Shown here: piece after piece, positions 6,635 through 57,239 of the stretch
Layout: every line of letters starts with the position of its first letter
How positions within the stretch are numbered: position 1 is the stretch's first letter
DNA from: Eledone cirrhosa
Taxonomy: Eukaryota
Direction: 5' to 3'
Length of the DNA: 64,000 nucleotides
Assembly (NCBI GenBank): GCA_964016885.1
Contig: OZ024746.1
Location: forward strand, 63,116,001 to 63,180,000
Notes under the pieces: generated by a model
What the model was told of the DNA's origin: nothing
Seen by the model: the letters and a program-made list of their open reading frames with translations, nothing else
Database searches by the model: none
Position numbers and translations under genes: made by a program

Positions 6635-6707
6635 CGACCACAACGAGACTCGAACTCGCAATCTTCTGATTCGAAGTCAGACGCCTTATCCATTAGGCCA
6701 TGCGGCC
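6635..6707 (-). tRNA. trnR-UCG: tRNA-Arg(UCG), consensus
   Basis: Cloverleaf, A/B boxes, anticodon TCG. Confidence 0.95.
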
Positions 6708-6866
6708 AACCTGACAATCTCTCTAGAAATTAGTCCTAATATATCGCCATCTAAAGAATAAACTGTGTGAATTTTGGAGTGTATAGAAAAGCCACTGAAC
6801 ATGATAGAAAGAAAAAGACATAGGGAATGCGATAAGAGCAAAAAAAAATAATAAAGTTTGTAACTA

Positions 6867-6939
6867 CGACCACAACGAGACTCGAACTCGCAATCTTCTG
6901 ATTCGAAGTCAGACGCCTTATCCATTAGGCCATGCGGCC
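6867..6939 (-). tRNA. trnR-UCG: tRNA-Arg(UCG), consensus
   Basis: Identical to consensus. Confidence 0.95.
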
Positions 6940-7109
6940 AACTTGTCAGTAGATCTAGAAATTAGTCCTAATATATTGTCAAATGATTTATATTTATATA
7001 TTTGACCTAAGTATGTTTTCAAAAGATCATATTTACTGGTAATTGATATAGGTTTGAAAAAGTTAAATAAGAACTATTGTAAGTCTTTTCTACATTGGCC
7101 TTTGTGTGG

Positions 7110-7380
7110 GGTTTGGGCTTGGAAAATGGCATTTGGGCTGAACCAATGCGCCAGGGTCAGTTTCAAAATGGTAAATTGATTAAGTCAGTATACACTGACA
7201 CTGAAATCTGCCAGATATTCAAGGAACAAATGAGTTATATAGATTAGATATCTGGGGGGTCGGCACACTAGAGTGTAAGAAGTAATTAAAAAAAAAAAAA
7301 AGGAATATATCCAACCAGCTGAGATGATTCTAAAGAGTGAAGTCCTAGCAACAAAAACATAATTTCAATGAGGTAAACTA
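7110..7380 (+). mobile_element. Degraded non-LTR RT fragment (R4/Dong-like)
   Basis: MAFGLNQCARVSFK..GKL...RYLG...ILKSE resembles the post-YADD M.FGLDKCA...YKYLG region; frameshifted. Confidence 0.45.
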
Positions 7381-8522
7381 AAATATGCAAGAAAGAGAGA
7401 GAGGGTGGAGACAGAAGCAAAATACAAAACTATCGTCATAATTTAGACTACATTAACCCAAAACTTATTCACATCACATTTATATTCCTTGGCAGGATAG
7501 AAGAACGGGTTGTGTTACATTTGAGATGGTATATAAAACATGTATAATTGAACTAGACATATCTAAACAAAGCAGAACATTCTACAAGAAGTTGCTAAAC
7601 ATGACAAAAGCAAATGATCACATTGAATATACACAGAAGCACAGAAATATTTAACAGGAATAGCTACTCCGCCCAAAAATTCCTTAAAAACCACGAACTT
7701 AATTAATACTAAACACACACACACACACTGCAGAAAAAACAGGTACATCAACGCATGAAAATGAAAGCATTATTCAGCTCGTTGGAAAAAAAACTTACTC
7801 ATCAACCCAGTTCAACCCTTGATTCTCAAACCTGTTGTTTCTTTTTTCTTTTTACCCTTTTGTTAATTCAACGGGCAGTGCTCATATGAACTTGCTAGTA
7901 GCATACCACTTCCAGTCAGGCCCACTCGTTCTCAGCATTCTCTTATAATCTCTGCTGTCTCACCTTTTATATATTGCACTAACACATCTCCAATCTTTCC
8001 TACCCAGAGCTGAAGTTCTCTGAATTCCTTCCCGACTACATTACTCCGGCAGTTGCTCAAACTGAACGTCAGCTTCATCAATCTTACAAGCCTACATGAC
8101 CTACAAATGTTAAGGGCATTGCATGCTTCAATTCCTCTGGCTAACTAATGAAAAAAATAATAATAGGTGATACCTAAATGAATATTGAATACAACTTTAC
8201 TATGTACATAGTTTAATAAAAGCATAGCCACATTTTACATACATTCTGAAGTAATTAGTTTGTAGCTTGTCAAAGTTGTTTCTTTGTCACTTGAGTCAAG
8301 CAGTAAACCTTTCCCAGCTTTTATATGTTTAAGTAAGATATTGCCGAAAATGTAAGAGAGAAAAATGCAAGTATATATAGAGTCAAATAGAGTTTATACG
8401 GAAATCTTAGAGTTGTGAAACTATGTAAATTGTGGTGTATATTAAAAAAAAAAAGACACTGAACATGGTAGAGGGAGAAAGACAGAGAGAATGCCAGTGA
8501 GTGAAAAAAAAAACGGTTAATA

Positions 8523-8581
8523 CAACCACAACGAGACTCGAACTCGCAATCTTCTAATCTTATCCATTAGGCTATGCGGCC
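8523..8581 (-). pseudogene. tRNA-Arg pseudogene with 14-nt deletion of the anticodon arm
   Basis: 59 nt; ends match consensus. Confidence 0.9.
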
Positions 8582-8599
8582 AACCTGACAGCTGTTTCT

Positions 8600-8750
8600 G
8601 ACATTTGCAGCATAGTTACGTCCCTTTACGGACTGAGTTCAAATCCCGCCGAGGTTAACTTTGCCTTTCATCCTTACGGGGTCGATAAAATAAAGTACCA
8701 GTAATGCACTGGGTAATTGCTGGCCTTGTGCCAAAAGTAGAAACAATTAT
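8600..8750 (+). mobile_element. 5'-truncated tRNA-derived SINE
   Basis: B box and core present; homologous empty site near 50395. Confidence 0.85.
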
Positions 8751-8799
8751 TACAAATATATTATGTCAAATGATTTAATGGTAATATTTTAAAGTATTT

Positions 8800-9600
8800 T
8801 GACAACATTTATTGTTTAATTAACGCTCTCCATTCTTGGCTCTCCGTTTCTCTCGAAAGCAGTATGAGAATGTTGGAGACCAAGCATGCCGACCTGTCTA
8901 ATATGACTGAGAGGTTGCGCTTCGTTGACGTCCACTCATCTCTCTTCCTCCTTAGGAACTGCTTCACCCTTCCAAAATGCATATTCCTGCTGCGCGGTGC
9001 GTCTTGTCAAAGTTTCGCAAATAACCTCAGTGAACTCGATGCTACCTTCCGGCGCTGTGCGGAACTCGTCTTCAATGTTAGTTTCCAGAGTGCCGACAGG
9101 CAAAGGCGAAGCTGCCCGTGAGGTTTGGTGGCCACGGCTTCCGATCTGCATTGGATATGGCACTGCTGGCTTGCCTCTACTCAATTTCATCCAGTCGAAC
9201 CCTCATCATAGAGGTCCTCCACAAGACGGCAGAACCTGGCGTGGTTCCAGACTGGAATTAGGTCAAGCCGACTAGACCGGTGAAGGTCACTTTGTCCCCC
9301 AGTATACAAATATCCATCGTAATCTGGACGACATCAACTGCAGGTCTTGCTTCGCAGCCAAACAGCGGCGCATGATTCGATTCGATGCCTTCCTCATCGA
9401 CCGGTACCCTTCTTGATGACGAGTGCACTCACATCGGAGTAGCCTAGTACCTTGGCTTCGCGTGTGTGAGCCACATAAATACCATTGTTGAGGTGTCGTC
9501 ATGGAGTTCAGGCTGCGCCCACTTTCATGCATTCAGAGCTCAGACAGGTTCCCCGAACAAGTTGCTCTGAACGACATAATAGGGAGTCTAGACGCAGCCA
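8800..9600 (+). mobile_element. Degraded CRE-like (RLE-type) non-LTR retrotransposon fragment
   Basis: D.H..LFLLRNCFTLPKCIFLLR...LPVRFGGHG and PSSSTGTLLDD..IGVA..LG...LNDII motifs across broken frames. Confidence 0.7.
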
Positions 9601-9990
9601 GTTTAAAATCTTATTCATACCTATTTAAGAAAAACTAGGAGAGAAAAATAAAAGTATCTATTGAATCAAATAGAGTTTATACGTAAATCTGAGAGTTGAG
9701 ATAATGTTGAAATTTTCTGAAGAGTTCTATTATTAGAAGAATTATCATAACAAGTTGAACCAGTAATGTAATGTATTACAAGGTGTTTCTGTTAAAGAAA
9801 TATATTTATAACATATTGAAAAAAGGAAGGTTGGTACACTACATGATGTCTGTGTAGAGATGTTATGTTGTGCTTAGTTTGAATAGAATAAACTGTGTAA
9901 ATTGTGGTGTGTAGAGATAAGATACTAAACCTGATAGAGAGGGACAGTTAGAGAGAACGCCAGAGAGTAAAAGCAAAATGGCACTTATTA

Positions 9991-10063
9991 CGACCACAAC
10001 GAGACTCGAACTCGCAATCTTCTGATTCGAAGTCAGACGCCTTATCCATTAGGCCATGCGGCC
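9991..10063 (-). tRNA. trnR-UCG: tRNA-Arg(UCG), consensus
   Basis: Identical to consensus. Confidence 0.95.
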
Positions 10064-10856: not shown

Positions 10857-10929
10857 GGCCGCATGGCCTAATGGATAAGGCGTCTGACTTCGAATCAGAA
10901 GATTGCGAGTTCGAGTCTCGTTGTGGTCG
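10857..10929 (+). tRNA. trnR-UCG: tRNA-Arg(UCG), consensus
   Basis: Identical to consensus. Confidence 0.95.
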
Positions 10930-11097
10930 CAATAGGACAAATTTTGTTTTTATTCTCTTGCAATATATTTCTTTTACAGAAACACCTTGTAATACATTAC
11001 ATTACAGGTTCAACTTGTTATAATAATTCTTCTAATAGAAAATTTCAACATTATCTCAACTCTCAGATTAACGTATAAACTCTATTTGATACAATAG

Positions 11098-11259
11098 ATA
11101 CTTTCACTTTTCTCCCTTAGATTTTCCTCAATAACAAACTTAAGATCGAATGAATAAGATTTTACTGAGTATTTAATGGTTTAAATACTCAGTAAAATCT
11201 TATTCATTCGATCTTAAGTTTGATATTGACGAAAATCTAAGAGAGAAAAGTGAAAGTAT
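11098..11259. repeat. Near-perfect palindrome, ~79 bp arms, 4-nt loop
   Basis: ...TTTACTGAGTATTTAA TGGT TTAAATACTCAGTAAA... Confidence 0.9.
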
Positions 11260-11303
11260 TGATATAAGATTTTACAGCTGATATCTAAAGAACTTGCCAG
11301 GTT

Positions 11304-11376
11304 GGCCGCATGGCCTAATGGGTAAGGCGTCTGACTTCGAATCTGAAGATTACGTGTCCGATTCTCGTTGTGGTCG
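11304..11376 (+). pseudogene. tRNA-Arg(UCG) degenerate subfamily B
   Basis: A20G, A41U, T-arm/B box altered (GTCCGATTC). Confidence 0.85.
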
Positions 11377-11954
11377 CGGGAATGCTGTTTCTGTTTTTAC
11401 TCTTCCTCTCATTCTCACCCTCTCGCTCTCTCCCGCAATCTATTTTTCATGCGCATCACATATCCTTGTTTATCATAAAACCTAAGAATAATAATTTTTT
11501 GACTAAGTTTTGTCAGAGGTAAGAGATTTTTGAACCATTTACCTTTTCAAGAAATATAAATATTTATTTCCAAAAAGCAAAAAGCAAAATGGCGGGAAAG
11601 TTAAGAACGTTGTTTATCATAAAACATTTTACTAAGAATTCTTTGACTATATTTTCTCAGAGGTGATATATTTTTTGAACCGTGTATCTTGTTCAAACAA
11701 TATAAACATTTATTTCAAAAAACAAAACAAAAAACAAAAATATATGCACAATTCCCACAGCTATTGAGTAATAGAGTGACGAACAACTAAATGTTTTATT
11801 TCCAAGGTAACACCGGATAAACTACTGCGTACTTATATGAGAAAGTGTGGTATTACGGCAATCTATGTATACCATTAAAGAAGGACATGAAAAAGTTATC
11901 ATAAATAATTCAACATATTAAATTAGGACTAATTTCCAGCATGTCTAGCAGGTC

Positions 11955-12027
11955 GGCCGCGTGGCCTAATGGGTAAGGCGTCTGACTTCGAATCAGAAGA
12001 TTGCGAGTTCGAGTCTCGTTGTGGTCG
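11955..12027 (+). tRNA. trnR-UCG: tRNA-Arg(UCG) variant (A7G, A20G)
   Basis: Cloverleaf intact. Confidence 0.85.
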
Positions 12028-12754
12028 CAATAGGACAAATTTTGTTTTTATTCTCTTGCAATATTTTTCTTTTACAGAAACACCTTGTAATACATCACAT
12101 TACTGGTTCAACTTGTTATAATAATTCTTCTAATAGAAAATTTCAACATTATCTCAACTCTCAGATTTACGTATAAACTCTATTTGATACAATAGATACT
12201 TTCACTTTTCTCTCTTAGATTTTCCTCAATAACAAACTTAAGATCGAATGAATAAGATTTTACTGAGTATTTAAACCTTGCCCAGTCACGTATTCTTGGG
12301 TATAAACCAAATTACTCAAATTAATATCAGATATTTCAACTAAACTACAGCCAGGACATCACAGCAACATATATTGTGTCACATTCACTATCTTCTCGAT
12401 TCATATCTGTTTTAGAGTCTTAAAGTAGTCACAACTATCATATGTCATACATCTTGGTAACATATGTCTTTACAATGTCAATAAAAATATTATCTCCATG
12501 TCAGACATTTAATATGACTGGACTATAGTTGTAAGAGTCCTGTTTCTCTCATAGACAGATATATGTTGGATGTTGACATGTTGGAAGTGAGAACAATCTT
12601 TATATAAATGATCAACCGAGTGTTTTATTTCCAAAGCAACGCCGGATAACTTGCTACATAATCACATGTATATACGTGGTATAATAAATATATATTGTCT
12701 CCAATTCATTTGATATAAGATTTTAGAGCTGATATCTGAAACAGCTGCCATGTT

Positions 12755-12827
12755 GGTCGCATGGACTAATGGATAAGGCGTCTGACTTCGAATCAGAAGA
12801 TTGCGAGTTCGAGTCTCGTTGTGGTCG
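12755..12827 (+). tRNA. trnR-UCG: tRNA-Arg(UCG) variant (C3U, C11A)
   Basis: One D-stem mismatch. Confidence 0.7.
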
Positions 12828-12995
12828 TAATAAGTCCCATTTTGCTTTAACTCTCTCGCGTTCTCTCTAACAGTCCCTCTCTATCAGGTTTAGTATCTTA
12901 TCTCTACACACCACAATTTACACAGTTTATTCTATTTAAACTAATCACAACATAACATCTCTACACAGACATCATGTAGTGTACAAACCTTCATT

Positions 12996-13180
12996 GTGGA
13001 TTGGCAGTATCAGGAGATGGTCGGACGCCATGCTTTTCAGCATAGTTACATCCCTTTACGATCTGAGTTCAAATCCCGCCGAGGTTGACTTTGCCTTTCA
13101 TCATTACGGGGTCGATTAAATAAAGTACCAGTAATGCACTGAGTATTTGCTGGCCTTGTGCCTAAAGTAGAGATAATTAT
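12996..13180 (+). mobile_element. tRNA-derived SINE inserted in array spacer
   Basis: Interrupts AAACCTTCATT|ATTTCAATATG; same insertion at 47757. Confidence 0.9.
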
Positions 13181-13582
13181 TTCAATATGTTATAAATATA
13201 TTTCTTTAACAGAAACACCTTGTAATACATTACATTACTCGTTCAACTTGTTATAATATTTCTTCTAATAATAGAACTCTTCAGAATATTTCAACATTAT
13301 CTCAACTCTCAGATTTACGTATAAACTCTATTTGATACAATACATACTTTCACTTTTCTCTCTTAGATTTTCCTCAATAACAAACTTAAGATCGAATGAA
13401 TAAGATTTTACTGAGTATTTAAACCTTGCCCTGTCACGTATTCTTGGGTATCAACCAACTTACTCAAATTAATATCAGATATTTCAACTAAACTACAGCC
13501 AGGTCATCACAGCAACATATATTGTGTCACATTCACTATCTTCTCGATTCATATCTGTTTTAGAGTCTTAAAGTAGTCACAA

Positions 13583-13652
13583 CGCATGGCCTAATGGGTA
13601 AGGCGTCTGACTTCGAATCAGAAAATTACGAGTTCGAGTCGCGTTGTGGTCG
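13583..13652 (+). pseudogene. 5'-truncated tRNA-Arg(UCG)
   Basis: First 3 nt and upstream flank lost by deletion; A20G, G45A, G49A, U62G. Confidence 0.85.
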
Positions 13653-14734
13653 TAATAAGTGCTATTTTGCTTTTACTCTCTGGCGTTCTCTCTAACTGTC
13701 CCTCTCTATCAGGTTTAGTATCTTATCTCTACACATCACAATTTACACAGTTTATTCTATTTAAATTTATCATAACATAACATCTCCCCACAGACATCAT
13801 GTAGTGTACAACCCTTCATTATTTCAATATGTTATAAGTATATTTCTTTAACAGAAACACTTTGTAATACATCACATTACTGGTTCAACTTGTTATAATA
13901 TTTCTTCTAATAATAGAACTCTTCAGAATATTTCATCATTATCTCAACTCTCAGATTTACGTATAAACTCTGTTTGATACAATAGATACTTTCACTTTTC
14001 TCTCTTAGATTTTCCTCAATAACAAACTTAAGATCGAATGAATAAGATTTTACTGAGTATTTAAACATTGCCCAGTCACGTATTCTTGGGTATAAACCAA
14101 CTTACTCAAATTAATATCAGATACTTCAACTAAACTACAGCCAGGTCATCACAGCAACATATATTGAGTCACTTTCACTATCTTCTCGATTCATATCAGT
14201 TTTACAGTCTTAAAGTACTCACAACTATCATATGACATATATCATGGTAACATATGTCTTAGCTTTACAATGTCAATAAAAATTTAATCTCAATGTCAGA
14301 CATTAAATATGACTGGACTATAGTTGGAAGAGTCCTGTTTCTCTCATAGACAGATATATGTTGGATGTTGACATGTTGGAAGTGAGAACAATCTTTATAT
14401 AAATGATCATGGCGGGAAAGTTAAAAACTTTGTTTATCGTGAAACATTTCACTAAGAATTCTTTGACTATATTTTGTCAGAGGTGATAGATATTTTGAAC
14501 CATGTATTTTTTTTAAAGAATATAAACATTAGGTTTCAAAGAAAGAAAAAACAGAAATAATTCCCACATCTATTTTGTAACAGATTGTCCAACAACCGAG
14601 TGTTTTATTTCCAAAGCAACGCCGGATAACTTGCTACATAATCACATGTATATAGGTAGTATAATTAAAAAATATTGTCTCCAATTCATTTGATATAAGA
14701 TTTTACAGCTGATATCTGAAGCAGCTGCCATGTT

Positions 14735-14807
14735 TGCCGCATGGCCTAATGGATAAGGCGTCTGACTTCGAATCAGTAGATTGCGAGTTCGAGTCTCGTT
14801 GTGGTCG
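14735..14807 (+). tRNA. trnR-UCG: tRNA-Arg(UCG) variant (G1U, A43U)
   Basis: Terminal stem mismatches. Confidence 0.7.
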
Positions 14808-15211
14808 CATTAACTGGATTTTTTTCTTTTACTCTCTTGCATTCTCTCTCTATCGTGTTTGGTGACTTTATTTATGCACCTCAATTCACACAGTTTAAGT
14901 TTTAAAAGTTATTTATCATGAAACATTTTACTAATTTTTTTTACTATATATTGTCAGAGGTAATAGATTTTTTGAAACATTTATCTTCTCCAAAGAACCA
15001 TATAGCTGGTTTGAAAGAAAGAAAAATTATGAATAATTCCCACATCTCTTTTGTAACTGAGTGTCCAAAAACTGATAGTTTTATTTCCAAGGCAACGCTG
15101 GATAACTTGTTGCTTATTAACATGTATATACACAGTATAATTAAAAAAATATTATCTCCAATTCGGTTGATATAAGATTTTAGAGCTGATATCTGAGTCA
15201 GCTGTAAGGTT

Positions 15212-15283
15212 GGCCGCATGACCTAATGGGTAAGGCGTCTGATTCGAATTAGAAGATTGCGAGTTCGAGTCTCGTTTTGGTCG
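15212..15283 (+). pseudogene. tRNA-Arg degenerate subfamily C (6-nt anticodon loop)
   Basis: G10A, A20G, deletion of C32, C40U, G67U. Confidence 0.85.
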
Positions 15284-16365
15284 TAATAAGTGCCATTTTG
15301 CTTTTACTCTCTGGCGTTCTCTCTAACTGTCCCTCTCTATCAGGTTTAGTATCTTATCTCTACACACCACATTTTACACAGTTTATTCTATTCAAACTAA
15401 TCACAACATAACATCTCTACACAGACATCATGTAGTCTACAAACCTTCATTATTTCAATATGTTATAAATATATTTCTTTAACAGAAACACCTTGTAATA
15501 CATTACATTACTCGTTCAACTTGTTATAATATTTCTTCTAATAATAGAACTCTTCAGAATATTTCAACATTAACTCAACTCTCAGATTTACGTATAAACT
15601 CTATTTGATACGATAGATACTTTCACTTTTCTCTCTTAGATTTTCGTCAATGACAAACTTAAGATAGAATGAATAAGATTTTACTGAGTATTTAAACTTT
15701 GCCCAGTCACGTATTCTTGGGTATAAGCCAACTTACTCAAATTAATAACAGATACTTCAACTAAACTACAGCCAGGTCATCACAGCAACATATATTGTGT
15801 CACATTCACAATCTTCTCGATTCATATCAGTTTTACAGTCTTAAAGTAGTCACAACTATCATATGTCATATATCTTGGTAACATATGTCTTAGCTTTACA
15901 ATGTCAATAAAAATTTGATCTCAATGTCAGACATTAAATATGACTGGACTATAGTTGTAAGAGTCCTGTTTCTCTCATAGACAGATATATGTTGGATGTT
16001 GACATGTTGGAAGTGAGAACAATCATTATATAAATGATCATGGCGGGAAAGTTAAGAACGTTGTTTATCGTGAAACATTTCACTAAGAATTATTTGACTA
16101 TATTTTGTCAGAGGTGATAGATATTTTGAACCATATATTTTTTTCAAACAACATAAACATTAGGTTTCAAAGAAAGAAAAAATAGAAATAATTCCCACAT
16201 CTATTTTGTAACAGATTGTCCAACAACCGAGTGTTTTATTTCCAAAGCAATGCCGGATAACTTGCTACTTATTCACATGTATATAGGTAGTATAATTAAA
16301 AAATATTGTCTCCAATTCATTTGATATAAGATTTTACAGCTGATATCTGAAACAGCTGTCAGGTT

Positions 16366-16438
16366 GGCCGCATGGCCTGATGGATAAGGCGTCTGGCTTC
16401 GAATTAGAAGATTGCGAGTTCGATTCTCGTTGTGGTCG
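16366..16438 (+). tRNA. trnR-UCG: tRNA-Arg(UCG) variant (A14G, A31G, C40U, G59U)
   Basis: Foldable with extra G-U pairs; A box altered. Confidence 0.6.
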
Positions 16439-16843
16439 CATTAACTGGATTTTTTTTCTTTTACTCTCTTGCATTCTCTCTCTATCGTGTTTGGTGACTT
16501 TCTTTATGCACCTCAATTCACACAGTTTAAGTTTTAAAAGTTGTATATCATGAAACATTTTACTAATTTTTTTTACTATATATTGTCAGAGGTAATAGAT
16601 TTTTTGAAACATTTATCTTCTTCAAAGAACCATATAGCTGGTTTGAAAGAAAGAAAAATTATGAATAATTCCCACATCTATTTTGTAACTGATTGTCCAA
16701 AAAATGATCGTTTTATTTCCAAGGCAACGCTGGATAACTTGTTGCTTATTAACATGTATATACACAGTATAATTAAAAAAATATTATCTCCAATTCGGTT
16801 GATATAAGATTTTAGAGCTGATATCTGAGTCAGCTGTCAGGTT

Positions 16844-16916
16844 GGCCGCATGGCCTAATGGGTAAGGCGTCTGACTTCGAATCTGAAGATTGCTTGTCCG
16901 ATTCTCGTTGTGGTCG
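16844..16916 (+). pseudogene. tRNA-Arg(UCG) degenerate subfamily B
   Basis: A20G, A41U, broken T arm. Confidence 0.85.
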
Positions 16917-17494
16917 CGAGAATGCTGTTTCTGTTTTTACTCTTCCTCTTATTCTCACCCTCTCGCTCTCTCCCGCAATCTGTTTTTCATGCACATCACA
17001 TTTCCTTGTTTATCATAAAACCTATGAATAATAATTTTTTGACTAAGTTTTGTCAGAGGTAAGAGAATTTTGAACCATTTACCTTTTCAAGAAATATAAA
17101 TATTTATTTCAAAAAAGCAAAAAGCAAAATGGCGGGAAAGTTAAGAACGTTGTTTATCATAAAACATTTTACTAAGAATTCTTTGACTATATTTTCTCAG
17201 AGGTGATATATTTTTTGAACCGTGTATCTTTTTCAAACAATATAAACATTTATTTCAAAAAACAAAACAAAAAACAAAAATATATGCACAATTCCCACAG
17301 CTATTGAGTAATAGAGTGACGAACAACTAAATGTTTTATTTCCAAGGTAACACCGGATACACTACTGCGTACTTATATGAGAAAGTGTGGTATAACGGCA
17401 ATCTTTGTATACCATTAAAGAAGGACATGAAAAAGTTATCATAAATAATTCAACATATTATATTAGTACTAATTTCCAGCATGCCAAAGAGGTC

Positions 17495-17567
17495 GGCTGC
17501 GTGGCCTAATGGATAAGGCGTCCGACTTCGAATCAGAAGATTGCGAGTTCGAGTCTCGTTGTGTTCG
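17495..17567 (+). pseudogene. tRNA-Arg(UCG) probable pseudogene
   Basis: C4U, A7G, U29C, G70U weaken stems. Confidence 0.65.
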
Positions 17568-45310: not shown

Positions 45311-45887
45311 CGAGAATGCTGTTTCTGTTTTTACTCTTCCTCTTATTCTCACCCTCTCGCTCTCTCCCGCAATCTGTTTTTCATGCACATCACATTTCCT
45401 TGTTTATCATAAAACCTAAGAATAATAACTTTTTGACTAAGTTTTGTCAGAGGTAAGAGATTTTTGAACCATTTACCTTTTCAAGAAATATAAATATTTA
45501 TTTCAAAAAAGCAAAAAGCAAAATGGCGGGAAAGTTAAGAACGTTGTTTATCATAAAACATTTTACTAAGAATTCTTTGACTATATTTTCACAGAGGTGA
45601 TATATTTTTTGAACCGTGTATCTTTTTCAATCAATATAAACATTTATTTCAAAAAACAAAACAAACAAAAAAATATGTGCACAATTCCCACAGCTATTGA
45701 GTAATAGAGTGACCAACAACTAAATGTTTTATTTCCAAGGTAACACCGGATACACTACTGCGTACTTATATGAGAAAGTGTGGTATAACGGCAATCTATG
45801 TATACCATTAAAGAAGGACATGAAAAAGTTATCATAAATAATTCAACATATTATATTAGGACTAATTTCCAGCATGTCTGACAGGTC

Positions 45888-45960
45888 GGCCGCGTGGCCT
45901 AATGGATAAGGCGTCTGACTTCGAATCAGAAGATTGCGAGTTCGAGTCTCGTTGTGGTCG
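45888..45960 (+). tRNA. trnR-UCG: tRNA-Arg(UCG), A7G isodecoder
   Basis: Only A7G differs. Confidence 0.92.
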
Positions 45961-46812
45961 CAATAGTCAAATTTTGTTTTTATTCTCTTGCAATATATTT
46001 CTTTTACAGAAACACCTTATAATACATTACATTACTGGTTCAACTTGTTATAATAATTCTTCTAATAGAAAATTTCAGCATTATCTCAACTCTCAGATTT
46101 ACGTATAAACTCTATTTCATACAATAGATACTTTCACTTTTCTCTCTTAGATTTTCGTCAATAACAAACTTAAGATCGAATGAATAAGATTTTACTGAGG
46201 ATTTCAACTAAACTACAGCCAGGTCATCACAGCAACATGTATTGAGTCACTTTCACTATCTTCTCGATTCATATCTGTTTTACAGTCTTAAAGTAGTCAC
46301 AACTATCATATGTCATACATCTTGGTAACATATGTCTTAGCTTTACAACGTCAATAAAAATATTATCTCAATGTCAGACATTAAATAAGACTGGACTATA
46401 GTTGTAAGAGTCCTGTTTCTCTCATAGACAGACATATGTTGGATGTTGACATGTTGGAAGTGAGAACAATCTTTATATAAATGATCATGGCGGGAAAGTT
46501 AAGAACGTTGTTTATCGTGAAACATTTTACTAAGAATTCTTTGACTATATTTTGTCAGAGGTGATAGATATTTTGAAACATATATTTGTTTCAAACAATA
46601 TAAACATTAGGTTTCAAAGAAAGAAAAAATAGAAATAATTCCGACATCTATTTTGTAACAGATTGTCCAACAACCGAGTGTTTTATTTCCAAAGCAACGC
46701 TGGATAACTTGCTACTTATTCACATGTATATAGGTAGTATAATCAAAAAATATTGTCTCCAATTCATTTGATATAAGATTTTAGAGCTGATATCTGAAAC
46801 AGGTGTCATGTT

Positions 46813-46885
46813 GGCCGCATGGCCTAATGGATAAGGCGTCTGACTTCGAATCAGAAGATTGCGAGTTCGAGTCTCGTTGTGGTCG
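46813..46885 (+). tRNA. trnR-UCG: tRNA-Arg(UCG), consensus
   Basis: Identical to consensus. Confidence 0.95.
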
Positions 46886-47025
46886 CAATCGGAGAAATTT
46901 TGTTTTTACTCTCTTGCAATATATTTCTTTAACAGAAACACCTCGTAATACATTACATTAAATTTTAAAGTCCAAATTGTTTGATATAAGATTTTAGTGC
47001 TGATATATGAAGCTGCTGCCAGGTG

Positions 47026-47098
47026 GGCAACATGGCCTAATGGGTAAGGCGTCTGACGTCGAATGACAGGATTGAAAGTTCGCGTCTCGTTGTGGGCG
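47026..47098 (+). pseudogene. tRNA-Arg degenerate subfamily D
   Basis: GGCAAC, U33G, A58C. Confidence 0.85.
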
Positions 47099-47527
47099 CT
47101 AGAATAGCTGTACTTATTCTCTCGTTCATTTTTTTCACTTTCATTCTCTCTCACTACATCTCACTCCGCGTTTTTACACATCACATTTCTCTGTTTATCA
47201 TAAAACCTAAAAATAAGTATTTTTTGACTGAGTTTTTTTCAGGTGTAAGAGATTTTTTAACGATTTACCTTTTCAATAAATATAAACATTTATTTCAAAC
47301 AACAAAAAGAAAAGAAAAATATACGCATAATTCCCAGAGCTATTTTGTAATAGATTGACGAACAACTAAATGTTTTATTTCCAAGGAAACGCCGGATACA
47401 CTACTGCTTACTTATATAAGAAAGTGTGGTATTACGGCAATCTATATAATTGGCGAGAAACAATAAAAAGTTGTCAAAATATTCGACATAGTATATTAGT
47501 ACTAATTTCCAGTAGTGACAGCAGGTC

Positions 47528-47600
47528 GGCCGCGTGGCCTAATGGATAAGGCGTCTGACTTCGAATCAGAAGATTGCGAGTTCGAGTCTCGTTGTGGTCG
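47528..47600 (+). tRNA. trnR-UCG: tRNA-Arg(UCG), A7G isodecoder
   Basis: Only A7G differs. Confidence 0.92.
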
Positions 47601-47756
47601 AAATAAGTGCTATTTTGCTTTTTCTCTCTAACAGTCCCTCTCTATCAGGTTTAGTATCTTATCTCTACACACCACAATTTAAACAGTTTATTCTATTTAA
47701 ACTAATCACAACATAACATCTCTACCCAGACATCATGTAGTGTACAAACCTTCATT

Positions 47757-47940
47757 GTGGATTGGCAGTATCAGTAGATGGTCGGACGCCATGCTTTCCA
47801 GCATAGTTACGTCCCTTTACGATCTGAGTTCAAATCCCGCCGAGGTTGACTTTGCCTTTCATCCTTACGGGGTCGATAAATTAAAGTACCAGTAATGCAC
47901 TGAGTATTTGCTGGCCTTGTGCCTAAAGTAGAGATAATTA
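47757..47940 (+). mobile_element. tRNA-derived SINE inserted in array spacer
   Basis: Same site and sequence as 12996. Confidence 0.9.
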
Positions 47941-48847
47941 TTTCAATATGTTATAAATATATTTCTTTAACACCTTGTAATACATTATATTACTGGTTCA
48001 ACTTGTTATAATATTTCTTCTAATAATAGAACTCTTCAGAATATTTCAACGTTATCTCAACTCTCAGATTTACGTATAAACTCTATTTGATACAATAGAT
48101 ACTTTCACTTTTCTCTCTTAGATTTTCGTCAATAACAAACTTAAGATCGAATGAATAAGATTTTACTGAGGATTTCAACCTTGCCCAGTCACGTATTCTT
48201 GGGTATAAACCAACTTACTCAAATTAATATCAGATATTTCAACTAAACTACAGCCAGGTCATCACAGCAACATATATTGTGTCACATTCACTATCTTCTC
48301 GATTCATATCGGTTTTACAGTCTTAAAGTAGTCACAACTATCATATGTCATATGTCGTGGTAACATATGTCTTAGCTTTACAACGTCATTAAAAATTTGA
48401 TCTCAATGTCAGACATTAAATATGACTGGACTATAGTTGGAAGAGTCCTGTTTCTCTCATAGACAGATATATGTTGGATGTTGACATGTTGGAAGTGAGA
48501 ACAATCTTTATATAAATGATCATGGCCGGAAAGTTAAGAACGTTGTTTATCGTGAAACATTATACTAAGAATTCTTTGACTATATCATTTCAGAGGTGAT
48601 AGATATTTTGAACCATATATTTTTTTCAAACAATATAAACATTAGGTTTCAAAGAAAGAAAAAATAGAAATAATTCCCACATCTATTTTGTAACAGATTG
48701 TCCAACAACCGAGTGTTTTATTTCCAAAGCAATGCCGGATAACTTGCTACTTATTCACATGTATATAGGTAGTATAATTAAAAAATATTGTCTCCAATTC
48801 ATTTGATATAAGATTTTAGAGCTGATATCTGAAACAGCTGTCAGGTT

Positions 48848-48920
48848 GGCCGCATGGCCTAATGGATAAGGCGTCTGACCTCGAATCAGAAGATTGCGAG
48901 TTCGAGTCTCGTTGTGGTCG
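48848..48920 (+). tRNA. trnR-UCG: tRNA-Arg(UCG) variant (U33C)
   Basis: Anticodon loop CC TCG AA. Confidence 0.72.
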
Positions 48921-49060
48921 CAATCGGAGAAATTTTGGTTTTACTCTCTTGCAATATATTTCTTTAACAGAAACACCTCGTAATACATTACATTAAATTT
49001 TAAAGTCCAAATTGTTTGATATAAGATTTTAGTGCTGATATATGAAGCTGCTGCCAGGTG

Positions 49061-49133
49061 GGCAACATGGCCTAATGGGTAAGGCGTCTGACGTCGAATC
49101 ACAGGATTAAGAGTTCGCGTCTCGTTGTGGTCG
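49061..49133 (+). pseudogene. tRNA-Arg degenerate subfamily D
   Basis: GGCAAC, U33G, A58C. Confidence 0.85.
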
Positions 49134-49563
49134 CTAGAATAGCTGTACGTATTCTCTCGTTCATTTTATTCTCTTTCATTCTCTCTCACTACATCTCACT
49201 CCGCATTTTTTCACATCACATTTCTCTGTTTATCATAAAACCTAAAAATAAGTATTTTTTGACTGAATTTTTTTCAGGTGTAAGAGATTTCTTTAACGAT
49301 TTACCTTTTCAAGAAATATAAACATTTATTTCAAACAACAAAAAAAATAAAAAAATATACGCATAATTCCCAGAGCTACTTTGTAATAGATTGACGATCA
49401 ACTAAATGTTTTATTTCCAAGGAAACACCGGATACACTACTGCTTAATTATATAAGAAAGGGTGGTATTACGGCAATCTATATAATTGGCGAGAAACAAT
49501 AAAAAGCTGTCAAAATATTCGACATAATATATTAGTACTAATTTCCAACAGTGACAGCAGGTC

Positions 49564-49636
49564 GGCCGCGTGGCCTAATGGATAAGGCGTCTGACTTCGA
49601 ATCAGAAGATTGCGAGTTCGAGTCTCGTTGTGGTCG
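49564..49636 (+). tRNA. trnR-UCG: tRNA-Arg(UCG), A7G isodecoder
   Basis: Only A7G differs. Confidence 0.92.
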
Positions 49637-50469
49637 TAATAAGTGCCATTTTGCTTTTACTCTCTGGCTTTCTCTCTAACTGTCCCTCTCTATCAGGTTT
49701 AGTATCTTATCTCTACACACCACAATTTACACAGTTTATTCTATTTAAACTAATCACAACATAACATCTCTACACAGACATCATGTAATGTACAAACCTT
49801 CATTATTTCAATATGTTATAAATATATTTCTTTAACAGAAACACCTTGTAATACATTACATTACTGGTTCAACTTGTTATAATAATTCTTCTAATAATAG
49901 AACTCTTCAGAATATTTCAACATTATCTCAACTCTCAGATTTACGTATAAACTCTATTTGATACAATAGATACTTTCACTTTTCTCTCTTAGATTTTCGT
50001 CAATAACAATCTGTTACAAAATAGCTGTGGGAATTATTTCTATTTTTTTCTTTCTTTGAAACCTAATGCTTATATTCATTAAAAAAGATATACCGTTCAA
50101 AATATCTATCACCTCTGACAAAATATAGTCAAAGAAACTTAGTAAAATATTTTAGGGTAAACAACGTTCTTAACTTGCCGGCCATGATCATTTATATAAT
50201 GATTGTTCTCACTTCCAACATGTCAACATCCAACATATATCTGTCTATGAGAGAAACAGGACTCTTACATCTATAGTCCAGTCATATTTAATGTCTGACG
50301 TTGAGATCATATTTTTATTGACATTGTAAAGCTAAGACATATGTTACCAAGACTTATACATTAGGCCATGCAGCCAGCTTGACATCTACTTCAGATATTA
50401 TTACAAATATATTATGTCAAATGATTTAATGGTAATGTTTTAAAGTATTTTGACAACATTTATTGTTTC

Positions 50470-50995
50470 TTAAGAATTAACGCCCAAGATGCTGTTTGCA
50501 TTCTTGGCTCTCCAATTCTCTCGAAACCGTATGAGAATACTTGGAGACCAAGCATGCCGACCTATCTAATATGACTGAGAGGTTGCGCTTCATTGACGTG
50601 CACTCATGTGTCGTCCTCCTTAGGAACTGCTTCACCCTTCCAAAGTGCATATTCCTGCTGCGCGGAGCGCTTTGTCAGACTTTCGCAGATCGCTTCGGTG
50701 AACTCGATGCTACCTTCCTACGCTGTGCGGAACACGTCTGCAATGTTAGTTTCGACGGCACCGGCAAGCAAAGAGGAACTTCCCGTGAGGTTTAGTGGCC
50801 ACGGCTTCCGATCAGCATTGGATATGGCACTACTGCTTGCCGCTACTCAATTTCCTCCAGTCGAACCATCACCAGAGAGGTCCTCAACAAATCGGCAGAA
50901 CCTGGCGTGGTTCCAGAAAGGAAGGTCACTTTGTCCCCCAGTATACAAATATCCATCGTAACCTGGACGACATCAACTGCACGCCTTGTTTGGTG
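50470..50995 (+). mobile_element. CRE-like retrotransposon fragment, copy 2
   Basis: ETKHADLSNMTERLRFIDVH..LLRNCFTLPKC; homologous to 8800-9350. Confidence 0.7.
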
Positions 50996-51395
50996 GAAAT
51001 CTTATTCATTCGATCTTAAGTTTGATATGGAAGAAAATCTAAGAGAGGAAAGTAAAAGTATCTATCGTATCAAATAGAGTTTATACGTAAATCTGAGATT
51101 TGAGATAATGTTGAAATTTTCTGAAGAGTTCTATTATTAGAAGAATTATCATAACAGGTTGAACCAGTAATGTAATGTATTACAAGGTGTTTCTGTTAAA
51201 GAAATATATTTATAACATATTGAAATAAGGAAGGTTGGTACACTACATGATGTCCGTGTAGAGATGTTATGTTGTGATTAGTTTAAATAGAATAAACTGT
51301 GTAAATTATGGTGTGTAGAGATAAGATAATAAACCTGACAGTTAGTGACAGTTAGAGAAAACGCAGGGAGAGTAAAAACAAAATGTCTCCTACTG

Positions 51396-51468
51396 CGACC
51401 ACAACGAGACTCGAACTCGCAATCTTCTGATTCGAAGTCAGACACCTTATCCATTAGGCCATGCGGCC
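51396..51468 (-). tRNA. trnR-UCG: tRNA-Arg(UCG) variant (C25U)
   Basis: G10-U25 wobble, otherwise consensus. Confidence 0.88.
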
Positions 51469-51929
51469 GACATAGCGTGGTGCTGGAAATTAGTATTAAT
51501 ATAATATGGTGAATTATTTTGACAAGTTTTTATTGTTTCTCACGAATTATATAGATTGCCGTAATACCACACTTTCTCATATAAGTAAGCAGTAGTGTAT
51601 CCGGTGTTGCCTTGGAAATAAAACATTTAGTTGATCGTCAATCTATTACAAAGTAGCTCTGAGTAATAAGCGTATATTTTTGTTTTCTTTTTTGTTTTTG
51701 AAATAAACATTTGTATTTCTTGAAAAGGTAAATCGTTAAAAAGATCTCTTACCTCTGAAAAAAACTTAGTAAAAATATACTTATTTATAGGTTTTATGAT
51801 AAATAAGGAAATGTGATGTGGATAAAAACGCAGAGGGAGATGGAGAGAGAGAATGAATGAGCGTGAAACAGAGAGTGAGAATGAAAGAGACAGTAATAAG
51901 AGGGAATAAAAACAAAACTAGCATTCATG

Positions 51930-52002
51930 CGACCGCAATGAGATTCGAATTCACAATCTTCTAATTCGAAGTCAGACGCAATATCCATTAGGCCACGCGG
52001 CC
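51930..52002 (-). pseudogene. Diverged tRNA-Arg(UCG), probable pseudogene
   Basis: D-stem mismatches, G53A; also pairing-compatible U50-A64 and U68C. Confidence 0.75.
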
Positions 52003-53081
52003 AACACGATGACCGACTCAGATATCAGCTCTAAAATCTTATATCAAACGATTTGGAGACAATATACTTTTAGTATACCACGTATACACATGTTAATAAG
52101 CAACAAGTTATGCGCCGTAGCCTTGGAAATAAAACGATCAGTTGTTGGACAATCAGTTACTAAATAGATGTGGGAATAATTTCTTTTTCTTTCTTTGAAA
52201 CCTAATGGCTATGTTCTTTATAAAAGATATACCGTTCAAAATATCTATCACCTCTGACAAAATATAGTCAAAGAATTCTTAGTGAAATGTTTCACGATAA
52301 ACAACGTTCTTAACTTTCCCGCCATAATCATTTATATAATGATTGTTCTCACTTCCAACATGTCAACATCCAACATATATCTGTCTATGAGAGAAACAGG
52401 ACTCTTACAACTATAGTCCAGTCATATTTAATGTCTGACATTGAGATAATATGTTTATTGACATTGTAAAGCTAAGACATATGTTACCAAGATATATGAC
52501 ATATGATAGTTGTGACTACTTTAAGACTGTAAAACTGATATGAATCGAGAAGATAGTGAATGTGACACAATATATGTTGTTGTGATGACCTGGCTGTAGT
52601 TTAGTTGAAGTATCTGATATTAATTTGAGTAAGTTGGTTTATACCCAAGAATATGTGACTGGGCAAGGTTTAAATACTCAGTAAAATCTTATTCATTCGA
52701 TCTTAAGTTTGATATTGACGAAAATCTAAGAGAGAAAAGTGAAAGTATCTATTGTATCAAATAGAGTTTATACGTAAATCTGAGAGTTGAGATAATGTTG
52801 AAATTTTCTGAAGAGTTCTATTATTAGAAGAATTATCATAACAAGTTGAACCAGGAATGTAATGTATTACAAGGTGTTTCTGTTAAAGAAATATATTTAT
52901 AACATATTGAAATAAGGAAGGTTGGTACACTACATGATGTCTGTGTAGAGATGTTATGTTGTGCTTAGTTTGAATAGAATAAACTGTGTAAAATGTGGCG
53001 TGTAGAGATAAGATACTAAACCTGATAGTTAGGGACAGTTAGAGAGAACGCCAGAGAGTAAAAGCAAAATGGCACTTATTA

Positions 53082-53153
53082 CGACCACAACGAGACTCGA
53101 ACTCGTATTTTCTAATTTGAAGTCAGACGCCTTTTCCATTAGGCCATGCGGCC
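53082..53153 (-). tRNA. tRNA-Arg-derived tRNA with UCA anticodon (candidate opal suppressor)
   Basis: GGCCGCATGGCCTAATGGAAAAGGCGTCTGACTTCAAATTAGAAAATACGAGTTCGAGTCTCGTTGTGGTCG; all four stems pair, A/B boxes intact. Confidence 0.75.
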
Positions 53154-53493
53154 GATCTGTTTAGGCCATTGGATATTAGTATTAATATATTATGGTGAAT
53201 TATTTTGACAACTTGTTATCGTTACGATTATTGTCGTTATACCATACTTTCTCATATAAGTATGCGTATATTTTCGTTTTCTCTTCTGCTTTTTGAAATA
53301 CAATGTTTATATTTCTTAAAAAAGTAAATCGTAAAAAAAATCTCTTACCTCTGACAAAACTTAGTCAAAAAATTCTTCTACGTAGTTTCATGATAAATAC
53401 GAAAATGTGAGATGGATAAAAACGCAGAGAGGGAGAGGCGGAGAGATAGAAAATGAAAGAGAAAGTAAATATAGGAGAATACCAACATCCTTG

Positions 53494-53566
53494 CGACCAC
53501 AACGAGACTCGAATACTCAATCTTCTGATTCGTGATCAGACGCCTTATCCATTAGGCCATGCGTCC
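53494..53566 (-). pseudogene. tRNA-Arg pseudogene with ACG at anticodon position
   Basis: Loop TC ACG AA; T stem disrupted; C3A. Confidence 0.8.
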
Positions 53567-54263
53567 CACTTGACAGCTGCTTCAGATATCAGCACTAAAA
53601 TCTTATATCAAACGATTTGGAGACAATATTTTTTGATTATACTACGTATATATATGTTAATAAACAGCAAGTTATCCGCTGTTGCCTTGGAAATAAAACC
53701 ATCAGTTGTTGGACAATCTGTTAGAAAAATAGCTGTGGGAATTATTTTTATTTTTTTCTTTCTTTGAAACCTAATGGTTATATACATTAAAAAAGATACA
53801 TGCTCCAAATATCTATCACCTCTGACAAAATATAGTCAAAGAATTCTTAGTAAAATGTTTCACGATAAACAACGTTCTTAACTTTCCCGCCATGATCATT
53901 TATATAAAGATTGTTCTCACTTCCAACATGTCAACATCCAACATATATCTATCTATGAGCAACAAGTTATCCAGCGTTGCCTTGGAAATAAAGCGATCAG
54001 TTGTTGGACAATCAGTACAAAATAGATGTGGGAATTATTCATAATTTTTCTTTCTTTCAAACCAGCTATATGGTTCTTTGAAGAAGATAAATGTTTCAAA
54101 AAATCTATTACCTCTGACAATATATAGTAAAAAAAAAATTAGTAAAATGTTTCATGATATACAACTTTTTAAACTTAAACTGTGTGAATTGAGGTGCATA
54201 AATAAAGTGACCAAACACGATAGAGAGAGAATGCAAGAGAGTAAAAGTATAAGTCAATTAATG

Positions 54264-54336
54264 CGACCACAACGAGACTCGAACTCGCAATCTTCTGATT
54301 CGAAGTCAGACGCCTTATCCATTAGGCCACGCGGCC
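54264..54336 (-). tRNA. trnR-UCG: tRNA-Arg(UCG), A7G isodecoder
   Basis: Only A7G differs. Confidence 0.92.
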
Positions 54337-54663
54337 GACCTGCTAACTGATAAGAAATTAGTACAAATATATTATGTTGAATTACTTTGACAACTTTATA
54401 TTCTTTCTTACGATTATTGTCGTCATACCACACTTTCTCATATAAGTAAGCAGTAGTGTATCCGGTTTTGCCTTGGAATTAAAACATTTGGTTGTTCGTC
54501 AATCTATTACAAAACTTAGTCAAACAATTCTTATTTATAGGTTTCATGATAAACAATGAAATGTGATGTGCATAAAACACAGAGAGAGCGAGAGGGAGAG
54601 AGGGGGAGAGATAAACAGAGAGAGATCAAATACGAGAGGATAAAAACAAAATTAATATTCCTG

Positions 54664-54739
54664 CGACCACAACGAGACTCGAACTAGCAATCTTCTAATA
54701 ATTCTAAGACAGACGCCTAACCATTAGGCGGATGGGGCC
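54664..54739 (-). pseudogene. Heavily altered tRNA-Arg pseudogene (TAG at anticodon position)
   Basis: Loop CT TAG AA plus 3-nt insertion; remodelled D arm. Confidence 0.8.
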
Positions 54740-55349
54740 AACCTGGCAGCTGCTTCAGATATCAGCACTAAAATCTTATATCAAACGATTTGGACTCAAT
54801 ATTTTTTTATTATACTACGTATATATATGTTAATAAACAGCAAGTTATCCGGCGTTGCCTTGGAAATAAACCATCAGTTGTTGGACAATCTGTTACAACA
54901 TAGCTGTCTTTGAAAATATAACTTTCTTTGAAAAATAGCTTTCTGTGAAACCTATTGTTTATATTCTTTGAAAAAGATACATGCTCCAAATATCTATTAT
55001 CTCTGACAAAATATAGTCAGAGAATACTTAGTATAATGTTTCACGATAAACAATGTTCTTAACTTTTCCGCCATGATCATTTATATAATGATTGTTCTCA
55101 CTTCCAACATGTCAACATCCAACATATATCTGTCTATGAGAGAAACAGGACTCTTACAACTATAGTCCAGTCTTATTTAATGTCTGACATTGAGATCATA
55201 TTTTTATTGACATTGTAAAGCTAAGACATATGTTACCAAGACTTATACATTAGGCCATGCAGCCAGCTTGACATCTGCTTCAGATATTATAACAAATATA
55301 TTGTCAAATGATTTAATGGTAATATTTTAAAGTATTTTGACAACATTTA

Positions 55350-55885
55350 TTGTTTCTTAACGCCCAAGATGCCGTTTGCATTCTTGGCTCTCCAATTCTC
55401 TCGAAAGCAGTATGAGAATACTTGGAGACCAAGCATGCCGACCTATCTAATATGACTGAGAGGTTGCGCTTCATTGACGTGCACTCATGTGTCGTCCTCC
55501 TTAGGAACTGCTTCACCCTTCCAAAATGCATATTCATGCTGCGCGGTGCGCTTTGTCAGACTTTCGCAGATGCTACCTTCCGACGCTGTGCGGAACTCGT
55601 CTGCAATCTTAGTTTCGACGGCACCGGCAAGCAAAGCGGAGCTGTCCGTGAGGTTTAGTGGCCACGGCTTCCGATCAGCATTGGATATGGCACTACTGCT
55701 TGCCTCTACTCAATTTCCTCCAGTCGAACCCTCACCAGAGAGGTCCTCAGCACAACGGCAGAACCTGGTGTGGTTCCAGACTAGAGTTAGATCAGGCCGA
55801 TTGGACCGGTGAAGGTCACTTTGTCCCCCAGTATACAAATATCCATCGTAACCTGGACGACATCAACTGCAGGCCTTGTTTGGAG
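55350..55885 (+). mobile_element. CRE-like retrotransposon fragment, copy 3
   Basis: Homologous to 50470 and 8800 copies. Confidence 0.7.
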
Positions 55886-56268
55886 CAAATCTTATTCATT
55901 CGATCTTAAGTTTGATATGGAAGAAAATCTAAGAGAGAAAAGTAACAGTATCTATCGTATCAAATAGAGTTTATACGTAAATCTGAGATTTGAGATAATG
56001 TTGAAATTTTCTAAAGAGTTCTATTATTAGAAGAATTATCATAACAAGTTGAATCAGTAATGTAATGTATTACAAGGTGTTTCTGTTAAAGAAATATATT
56101 TGTTGAAATAAGAAAGGTTTGTACACTACATGATATCTGTGTAGAGATGTTAAGTTGTCCTTAGTTTGAATAGAATAAATTGTGGTGTGTCGAGATAAGA
56201 TACTAAACCTGATAGTAAGAGACAGATAGAGAAAATGCCAGTGTATAAAAACAAAATAGCACTAAATA

Positions 56269-56341
56269 CGACCACAACGAGACTCGAACTCGCAATTTTC
56301 TGATTCGAAGTCAGACGCCTTATCCATTAGGCCATGCGGCC
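56269..56341 (-). tRNA. trnR-UCG: tRNA-Arg(UCG) variant (G45A)
   Basis: Cloverleaf intact. Confidence 0.9.
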
Positions 56342-56709
56342 GATCTGCTAATGCTACTGAAAATTAGTACTAATATATTTTTATTGTTTCTTACGAATAT
56401 TGTCGTAATACAAAGACTTTCTCATATAAGTAAGCAGTAGTGTATCCGGTGTTGCCTTGGAAATAAAACAGTTAGTTGTTCGTCAATCTATTACAAAGTA
56501 GCTGTGGGATTTATGCGTATATTTTTGTGTTTTTTTTTTGTTCTTTGAAAGGTAAATGGTTAAAAAAATTCGTTTACTTCTGACAAAACTTAGTCAAAAA
56601 ATTCTTCTTTATAGGTTTCATGATAAACAACGAAATGTGATGTGCATAAAAAACAGAGAGTTAGAGTAAGAGAGAGAAACGGAGAATGAAAACAAAACTA
56701 GCATTATTG

Positions 56710-56782
56710 CGACCACAACGAGACCCAAACACGCAATCTTCAGATTCGAAGTCAGACGCCTTATCCATTAGGCCATGCGGTC
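56710..56782 (-). pseudogene. tRNA-Arg(UCG) degenerate subfamily B-like
   Basis: T arm GTGTTTGGGTC as in 32462; A41U. Confidence 0.85.
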
Positions 56783-57166
56783 AACCTGACAGCTGACTCA
56801 GATATCAGCTCTAAAATCTTATATCAACCGATTTGGAGATAATATTTTTTTAATTATACTGTGTATATACATGTTAATAAGCAACAAGTTATCCAGCGTT
56901 GCCTTGGAAATAAAGCGATCAGTTGTTGGACAATCAGTTACAAAATAGATGTGGGAATTATTCATAATTTTACTTTCTTTCAAACCAGCTATATGGTTCT
57001 TTGAAGATGTTTCAAAAAATCTATTACCTCTGACAATATATAGTAAAAAAAATTAGGAAAATGTTTCATGATATACAACTTTTTAAACTTAAACTGTGTG
57101 AATTGAGGTGCATAAAGTCACCAAACACGATAGAGAGAGAATGCAAGAAAAAAAAGTCAGTTAATG

Positions 57167-57239
57167 CGACCACAACGAGACTCGAACTCGCAATCTTCTG
57201 ATTCGAAGTCAGACGCCTTATCCATTAGGCCATGCGGCC
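57167..57239 (-). tRNA. trnR-UCG: tRNA-Arg(UCG), consensus
   Basis: Identical to consensus. Confidence 0.95.

Follow-up and report, generated by a model that had tools for sequence, protein, structure and literature searches.

In the genome of the octopod Eledone cirrhosa, we have characterized an array of genes coding for tRNA-Arg(UCG), which is contained in a 64,000-nucleotide stretch of contig OZ024746.1 (positions 63,116,001 to 63,180,000, corresponding to C6:63.116-63.180 Mb of the 3.0 Gb genome), hereafter termed the window. A blastn search of the window using the first copy as query returned 73 matches between positions 6635 and 57239, comprising 71 near-full copies as well as 5' fragments of 23 nt at two sites (50353 and 55242), in agreement with a first-pass annotation made from the sequence alone, which had described a 71-copy array of a single tRNA type at this location. 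ARAGORN called 58 tRNA genes in the window and the Rfam family RF00005 60, while no RNA families beyond RF00005 were found there in the Rfam search. From left to right, the array is organized as four copies on the minus strand, followed by 58 on the plus strand and nine on the minus strand (Table 1). Since no tRNAs were found in the 20 kb flanking the window on each side, we regard the array as complete within it. The start-to-start spacing of copies ranges from 212 to 1832 bp and exceeds 1.6 kb in three gaps, so that the lower end of the initially proposed range of about 0.2-1.6 kb is retained and its upper end has to be extended. With every copy being derived from Arg(UCG) and 52 of the 70 gaps between neighbours below 1000 nt, the array represents a homogeneous cluster of tRNA genes (tDNAs) as defined in PMC2888827.

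Intact and defective genes are mixed in this array. The consensus sequence is found in 18 copies and another five carry A7G as sole change, which reproduces the 23 copies counted in this class before. Together with nine further copies (seven other variants and two carrying A19G), 32 copies were scored as structurally intact, as they form a cloverleaf with a UCG anticodon and retain the invariant bases. The other 39 were scored as defective on the basis of a broken stem pair, an altered invariant base, an altered anticodon or an indel, by criteria that are strict, such that a few one-mismatch copies counted as defective may work. Exact copies score 66.6 bits in Rfam, and the 18 exact matches obtained among the 40 scored of 113 candidates genome-wide all reside in the window. 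Folding z-scores of intact copies range from -1.0 to -1.9 and are uninformative. A run of at least four T, which constitutes a putative terminator for RNA polymerase III (Pol III), begins at most 40 nt downstream in 71 of 71 copies. The change A19G is carried by 21 copies and affects a base that we take to be the arginine identity position A20.

Besides singletons, the defective copies include three amplified families (P1, P2 and P3), which were co-amplified with neighbouring genes. P1 contains eight members (18634, 23116, 30325, 33861, 36950, 43690, 47026 and 49061), in which the T-run begins at 30. Among the unusual copies, the Arg-derived gene at 53082 with its UCA anticodon would, if expressed, be a possible opal suppressor.

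Table 1. Features of the tRNA-Arg(UCG) array, and dispersed candidate retrocopies. Positions refer to the window except for retrocopies, which are listed by locus.
Feature	Position	Strand	Description
Whole tRNA-Arg(UCG) array	6635..57239	mixed	71 copies, 32 intact and 39 defective
Left old block	6635..10063	-	Exact copies 6635, 6867 and 9991; copy 8523 with a 14-nt deletion
Recently amplified core	10857..49636	+	58 copies; six recurring spacer types and four one-off spacers
Right old block	50353..57239	-	Nine copies plus the two 23-nt fragments; inverted with respect to the core, with which it shares about 80-85% identity
Terminal exact copy	57167..57239	-	Trailer equals that of retrocopy L072 (another chromosome) at 15/15 bases
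Youngest higher-order duplication	17801..27490	+	5.2 kb at 99.3% identity, offset by 4484 bp
Pseudogene family P1, example	18634..18706	+	U33 and A58 lost; no cloverleaf fold
Pseudogene family P2, example	41666..41738	+	7 copies with trailer type D4; changes in T-arm and anticodon stem
Pseudogene family P3, example	21749..21820	+	Base 32 deleted; 4 identical bodies (15212, 21749, 26231, 27861)
Single copy with UCA anticodon	53082..53153	-	All stems paired, cloverleaf fold, 4-nt variable loop, terminator; 64 bits in Rfam
Retrocopies	L072:4662-4790, L073:5047-5180, L075:4938-5205, L076:1516-1770, L077:1486-1630, L078:1449-1520, L070, L074		Pre-tRNA copies joined in sense orientation to a short tail of a retroelement or SINE

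Spacer organization and growth of the array

The spacers in the core of the array define a mosaic of repeated units. Except for the one-off cases, 53 of its 57 spacers belong to homologous types with a mean divergence within a type of 1.1-4.9% and a maximum of 8%, and these types recur in a set order, as illustrated by type c, which is followed by d without exception. At the same time, leaders and trailers are found in reshuffled pairings, with leader U0 combined with trailers D0, D1, D2 and D4 and G7-type leaders with D0, D1 and D2, as would be expected from crossovers within the common 73-bp bodies. The six homologous spacer types and the amplification of pseudogenes beside intact genes both point to unequal crossing-over. 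Because Arg(UCG) genes outside the array carry G7 wherever this base could be aligned, A7 is likely derived in the array and the variant A7G would reflect the older state.

This organization shows the features of a tandem array of the Arabidopsis type, with repeat units containing homologous spacers, a nested duplication and a mixture of working and non-working genes. In PMC2886086, an 81-gene tRNA array on Arabidopsis chromosome 1 is explained by unequal crossing-over along with neutral drift. It is of similar size, shares the homologous spacers and the mixed working and non-working genes, and its growth was modelled by unequal crossing-over with no sign of dosage selection; however, it repeats one fixed triplet of genes as its unit, whereas the array described here contains a single isoacceptor, a mosaic of six spacer types and inverted ends. 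Also related are large homogeneous tDNA clusters with at least 50 mostly parallel tDNAs and interspersed pseudogenes, for which PMC2888827 reports a lineage-specific turnover that is unexplained by codon usage. Nematostella and teleosts contain the very large clusters named in this source, and those of Nematostella and zebrafish are dominated by heterogeneous pairs. The Arabidopsis array and these clusters are the closest matches to the Eledone array.

Two other types of arrays were considered and rejected. Entamoeba is said to contain arrays of many tRNA types, each organized in tandem. An array of this kind, with short tandem repeats in its spacers, was ruled out by Tandem Repeats Finder, which found no such repeats between positions 4787 and 54900. 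An array of tRNA-derived short interspersed nuclear elements (SINEs) was rejected since the copies terminate with a short trailer and a T-run and SINE-like sequence is only found as scattered insertions. The SINE-like insertions in the spacers are located at 12996-13171 and 47757-47932, and short remnants are seen near 34599 and 40231. Homologous degenerate retroelement-like fragments at about 8860-9340 and 50530-50990 adjoin both switches in orientation and may mark inversion junctions. On its left, the array is adjoined by the 3' part of the reading frame of a retrotransposon lacking long terminal repeats (5039-5902, minus strand; Pfam zf-RVT, E=1e-8).

The near-identity of the youngest duplication to its neighbour would also be compatible with a copy number that is inflated by assembly error. 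We consider such an error highly improbable, as most units differ by 1-8%, the old inverted blocks have diverged considerably further, Ns are absent and a fraction of 0.41 of the sampled words is present in three public runs, which originate from one sample that is possibly the source of the assembly.

A tandem tRNA repeat of a different kind is the human variable number tandem repeat in 1q23.3, for which PMC4041453 describes a variable copy number and proposes a boundary role. Its unit is GC-rich, 7.3 kb long and contains a conserved CTCF site, whereas units here measure 0.2-1.3 kb at about 32% GC (31-34% in the array core, which is thus not GC-rich). By analogy, the Eledone array could be maintained for a role as chromatin boundary or nuclear organizer involving TFIIIC/Pol III, with the tRNA product being secondary. 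The dense distribution of A and B boxes over 50 kb and the discussion of tRNA genes as barriers in PMC2888827 would agree with such a role, but pseudogenes with damaged boxes were amplified too, similar arrays exist for many tRNAs, and no protein-coding neighbour was recognized when long reading frames were surveyed over 20 kb to the left and right of the window, a survey that would miss small exons. We thus regard this explanation as very unlikely.

Variation of tRNA bodies and flanks

On a long timescale, the tRNA body appears to be protected from change. Bodies of ten intact copies differ by 0-1%, compared to about 17-52% in the 60-nt flanks of different families, where shuffled sequences differ by 48%. 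This difference supports long-term constraint or conversion of the body and bears out the long-term part of the earlier proposal that it is subject to selection or gene conversion. That proposal had referred to the outermost copies as matching the consensus exactly despite diverged flanks, which holds for 6635, 6867 and the 5' flank of 57167; the 3' flank of 57167, in contrast, differs by just 4% from a core family, and its divergence is thus confined to the 5' side.

Variation during the recent expansion was counted in gap-free columns of 53 of the 71 copies, which constitute seven families, leaving out copies 12755 and 35551, copies with singleton flanks and all minus-strand copies. In intact-type families, the body varies at 0.83 times the rate of the far flank (23/292 versus 47/496 sites, p=0.54), whereas in pseudogene-type families it varies at 2.3 times this rate (25/217 versus 19/372, p=0.008). 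The contrast between both (23 versus 47 and 25 versus 19 variants) yields p=0.019 in a Fisher test. A previous ratio of body to flank of 0.65 (p=0.08) was discarded, as it was inflated by recombinant 3' flanks, and was replaced by the value of 0.83 in the gap-free recount. Since bodies of the intact type vary at nearly the rate of their far flanks, the selection acting on an individual copy would be weak, albeit present, with many defects passing.

Retrocopies and signs of transcription

The immediate surroundings of the genes are more variable than the far flanks. In intact-type families, variation in the 20 bases upstream is 2.9 times (p=0.0001) and in the 10 bases downstream 2.6 times (p=0.009) that of the far flank. 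Transcription-associated mutagenesis around tRNA genes gives such a pattern in flanks, as described in PMC6130373.

A further indirect sign of transcription was obtained from eight dispersed candidates for retrocopies (Table 1), whose upstream DNA is unlike any array leader and which frequently lack part of their 5' end and are joined to a repeat tail. Trailers are readable in seven of them, four matching array trailers up to the T-run, one matching dispersed genes and two being unassigned. Next to the match to copy 57167, array trailers are matched at 15 of 16 bases each in L073, L076 and L078, compared to 9 of 15 for the best trailer from outside the array. L078 additionally retains the 5-nt leader that is typical of G7 array copies, while L075 and L077 carry A7. 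All four traced trailers are of types used by intact copies, with D0 also being used by the pseudogene family P3. Base 58 is altered in three of the eight candidates, in two cases to A58T, a change that is found in none of the 71 array copies and in two of the four retrocopies with array trailers. We assume that this change is the mark left by m1A58 during reverse transcription. A likeness exists to chimeras of tRNAs and long interspersed nuclear elements, in which a tRNA is fused to the 3' part of a retroelement, sometimes with target-site duplications; the primate cases described in bioRxiv 10.1101/2025.02.02.635956 are mostly antisense tRNA halves, whereas here the sequences are sense pre-tRNAs with trailers that can be traced to source genes. 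Because retrocopies keep array trailers cut at the T-run, pre-tRNAs of the array were likely made in cells contributing to the germ line. Judged from these retrocopies, the array is probably transcribed, rather than silent, which the first-pass annotation had named as a refuting outcome.

Other tRNA arrays, codon demand and evolution of the array

To place the array in its genomic context, other tRNA genes were searched by sequence patterns. The Arg(UCG) core pattern has 48 matches genome-wide, 31 of them in the array. With 83 matches, Arg(ACG) is even more frequent, 78 of them located in one Arg-Ser(GCU) array with a 2.08-kb unit that extends over 186 kb (C4:297.73-297.92 Mb, L040-L044) and contains an internal strand flip, as found in the Arg(UCG) array. 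An initial view of Arg(ACG) as rare isoacceptor, based on seven matches to a narrow pattern, was overturned by the wider one. In the sampled first half of the Arg-Ser array, Arg looks intact and Ser mostly degraded; its inverted second half contains seemingly intact Ser genes, together with Arg genes that are altered and escape detection by ARAGORN. A Thr(AGU)-like array contains 112 copies in about 50 kb (C1:243.648-243.70 Mb; L031, L013, L032, L011, L033 and L034), two of them exact to the reference used; many of its copies are degenerate, some with shifted anticodons (UGU, ACU, AAU). Lys(CUU) shows 55 matches, with 21 and 25 of them in two arrays, a Gln array contains at least 24 matches in 64 kb among the 100 of 445 listed, and an Asp-Glu array with a 1.34-kb unit covers at least 30 kb. 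Arg(CCU) has 19 matches, eight of which form a small cluster, and the nine matches for Lys(UUU) and three for Arg(CCG) are dispersed. With Thr, Lys(CUU), Gln, Asp/Glu and Ser(GCU) being arrayed as well, the situation that the first-pass annotation had named as refuting its proposal, a similar arrangement of all isoacceptors, is largely observed, with some isoacceptors as exceptions. The Arg(UCG) array, being among at least six large arrays of tRNA genes, is unexceptional in this genome.

Several observations accompany this survey. Arg(UCG) genes of the G7/C66 type form a second mini-array, which has decayed (L064-L065, C4:128.816-128.823 Mb) and is separated by about 75 kb from one of Lys(CUU). 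At C4:128.79-128.80 Mb (L062), a long region resembling a Helitron helicase was recognized by eye from its sequence. Five Gln-derived copies with a CUA anticodon (L024, C1:168.216-168.226 Mb) were considered as suppressors and rejected, as their anticodon stem is broken; they are likely pseudogenes amplified in the Gln array. A search of the genome with the RF00005 profile scored 63 of 552,091 candidates and provides no census. Above the Rfam cut-off, we also found a scattered family of tRNA-like sequences showing scrambled anticodons (GGC, GAC, GGT, GTC, AGC; L012, L014-L021 and L003:1765-1838), which likely represents the heads of SINEs and would inflate tRNA counts.

Codon usage was sampled in 6455 hemocyanin codons, in which CGA accounts for 33 and CGA and CGG together for 34 of the 252 Arg codons. 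For Lys, 205 AAA codons are found versus 99 AAG, yet tRNA matches amount to nine for UUU versus 55 for CUU. In this small sample, the arrayed state does not appear to follow codon demand. With respect to the sampled genes, the genome contains 39 matches to the molluscan hemocyanin domain and at least five near-complete gene copies (C1:173.74-173.91 Mb, an inverted pair at C26:21.93-22.02 Mb, and C27), and for one exon the best single-stretch match is PDB 1js8 with 855 bits versus 738 for 4yd9_C, which we take to be octopus and squid hemocyanin, respectively, in agreement with the coleoid host that the first-pass annotation had considered.

These numbers bear on the question whether the dosage of the tRNA was selected. 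In that case, arrays would constitute a high-output reserve, for example in oocytes or neurons, with the supply of UCG matched to the demand for CGA and CGG, including Gln codons that are edited to CIA and CIG (I denoting inosine). The host is an octopod, and octopuses contain 80-130,000 coding editing sites according to PMC13321053; moreover, most of the intact-core UCG matches sit in the array, its bodies are constrained relative to pseudogenes, and the arrayed tRNAs for Arg, Ser(GCU), Glu, Asp and Lys(CUU) read G-containing codons that editing can create. Selected dosage nevertheless appears unlikely to us in view of the co-amplification of defective copies, which account for more than half of the array, the small share of CGA and CGG among hemocyanin Arg codons and the fact that the largest single-type array found is that of Thr(AGU), whose codons cannot be created by editing. 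Edited sites would likely account for about 1% or less of codons, too few to need several-fold more genes. The initial idea that the array supplies a decoder for edited Gln codons is further disfavoured by Arg(CCG), the direct reader of CIG, which was not amplified, and by the Thr(AGU) and Gln arrays, among whose tRNAs are readers of codons that cannot arise through editing. Similarly, its view of the dosage as unexpected for a CGA decoder is not supported in light of the more numerous matches of Arg(ACG), for patterns that differ in strictness. A broader proposal, in which large germline-transcribed arrays of single types or pairs would provide octopods with much of their tRNA dosage, with sizes selected toward decoders of editing-created G-containing codons (Arg-UCG, Arg-ACG, Ser-GCU, Glu, Asp, Lys-CUU), is decidedly improbable; if true, tRNA genes and RNA editing would have evolved jointly, and active members of arrays would be documented by their retrocopies.

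We instead favour, with good confidence, birth-and-death growth of the array by unequal crossing-over, accompanied by partial homogenization through the body, transcription of intact members by Pol III and weak selection per copy. The array would then likely be an ordinary product of repeated local duplication and not a special supply for one codon. Misaligned crossovers within the near-identical 73-bp bodies would add and remove units and homogenize bodies, while transcription would raise the mutation rate at tRNA genes. With about 30 intact copies and additional dispersed genes, defects would only be weakly purged from any one copy, and selection would mainly keep enough working copies with their total number drifting.

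Certain points weigh against this interpretation. The near-neutral drift in copy number is a deduction, neither shared ancestry nor recombination is accounted for in the numbers of variants, and the upstream excess in variation is also found in pseudogene-type families (2.9 times, p=0.011) and hence does not single out active copies. A convincing target-site duplication is present in two of the eight retrocopy candidates (L075 and L076). Isoacceptor counts are lower bounds from exact matches to patterns of differing strictness, in a survey that did not cover Ala, Val, Gly, Leu, Pro, Ile, Phe and others, and the lack of a match to Arg(UCU) with three patterns, one with faulty spacing, is not evidence of its absence. 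Finally, the codon sample consists of paralogous exons of one gene family and is weak evidence.

Our results describe ordinary multigene-family evolution in a group, the cephalopods, for which we have found no description of nuclear tRNA arrays in the literature searched, which covered few subscription papers. If array sizes tracked the demand of edited codons, tRNA evolution would be tied to cephalopod recoding, but present evidence points away from such a relation. Since arrays and pseudogenes inflate the number of tRNA genes in octopus genomes, this number may poorly reflect tRNA supply. Retrocopies with source-specific trailers, in turn, would allow the members of an array that are transcribed in the germ line to be deduced from DNA alone.

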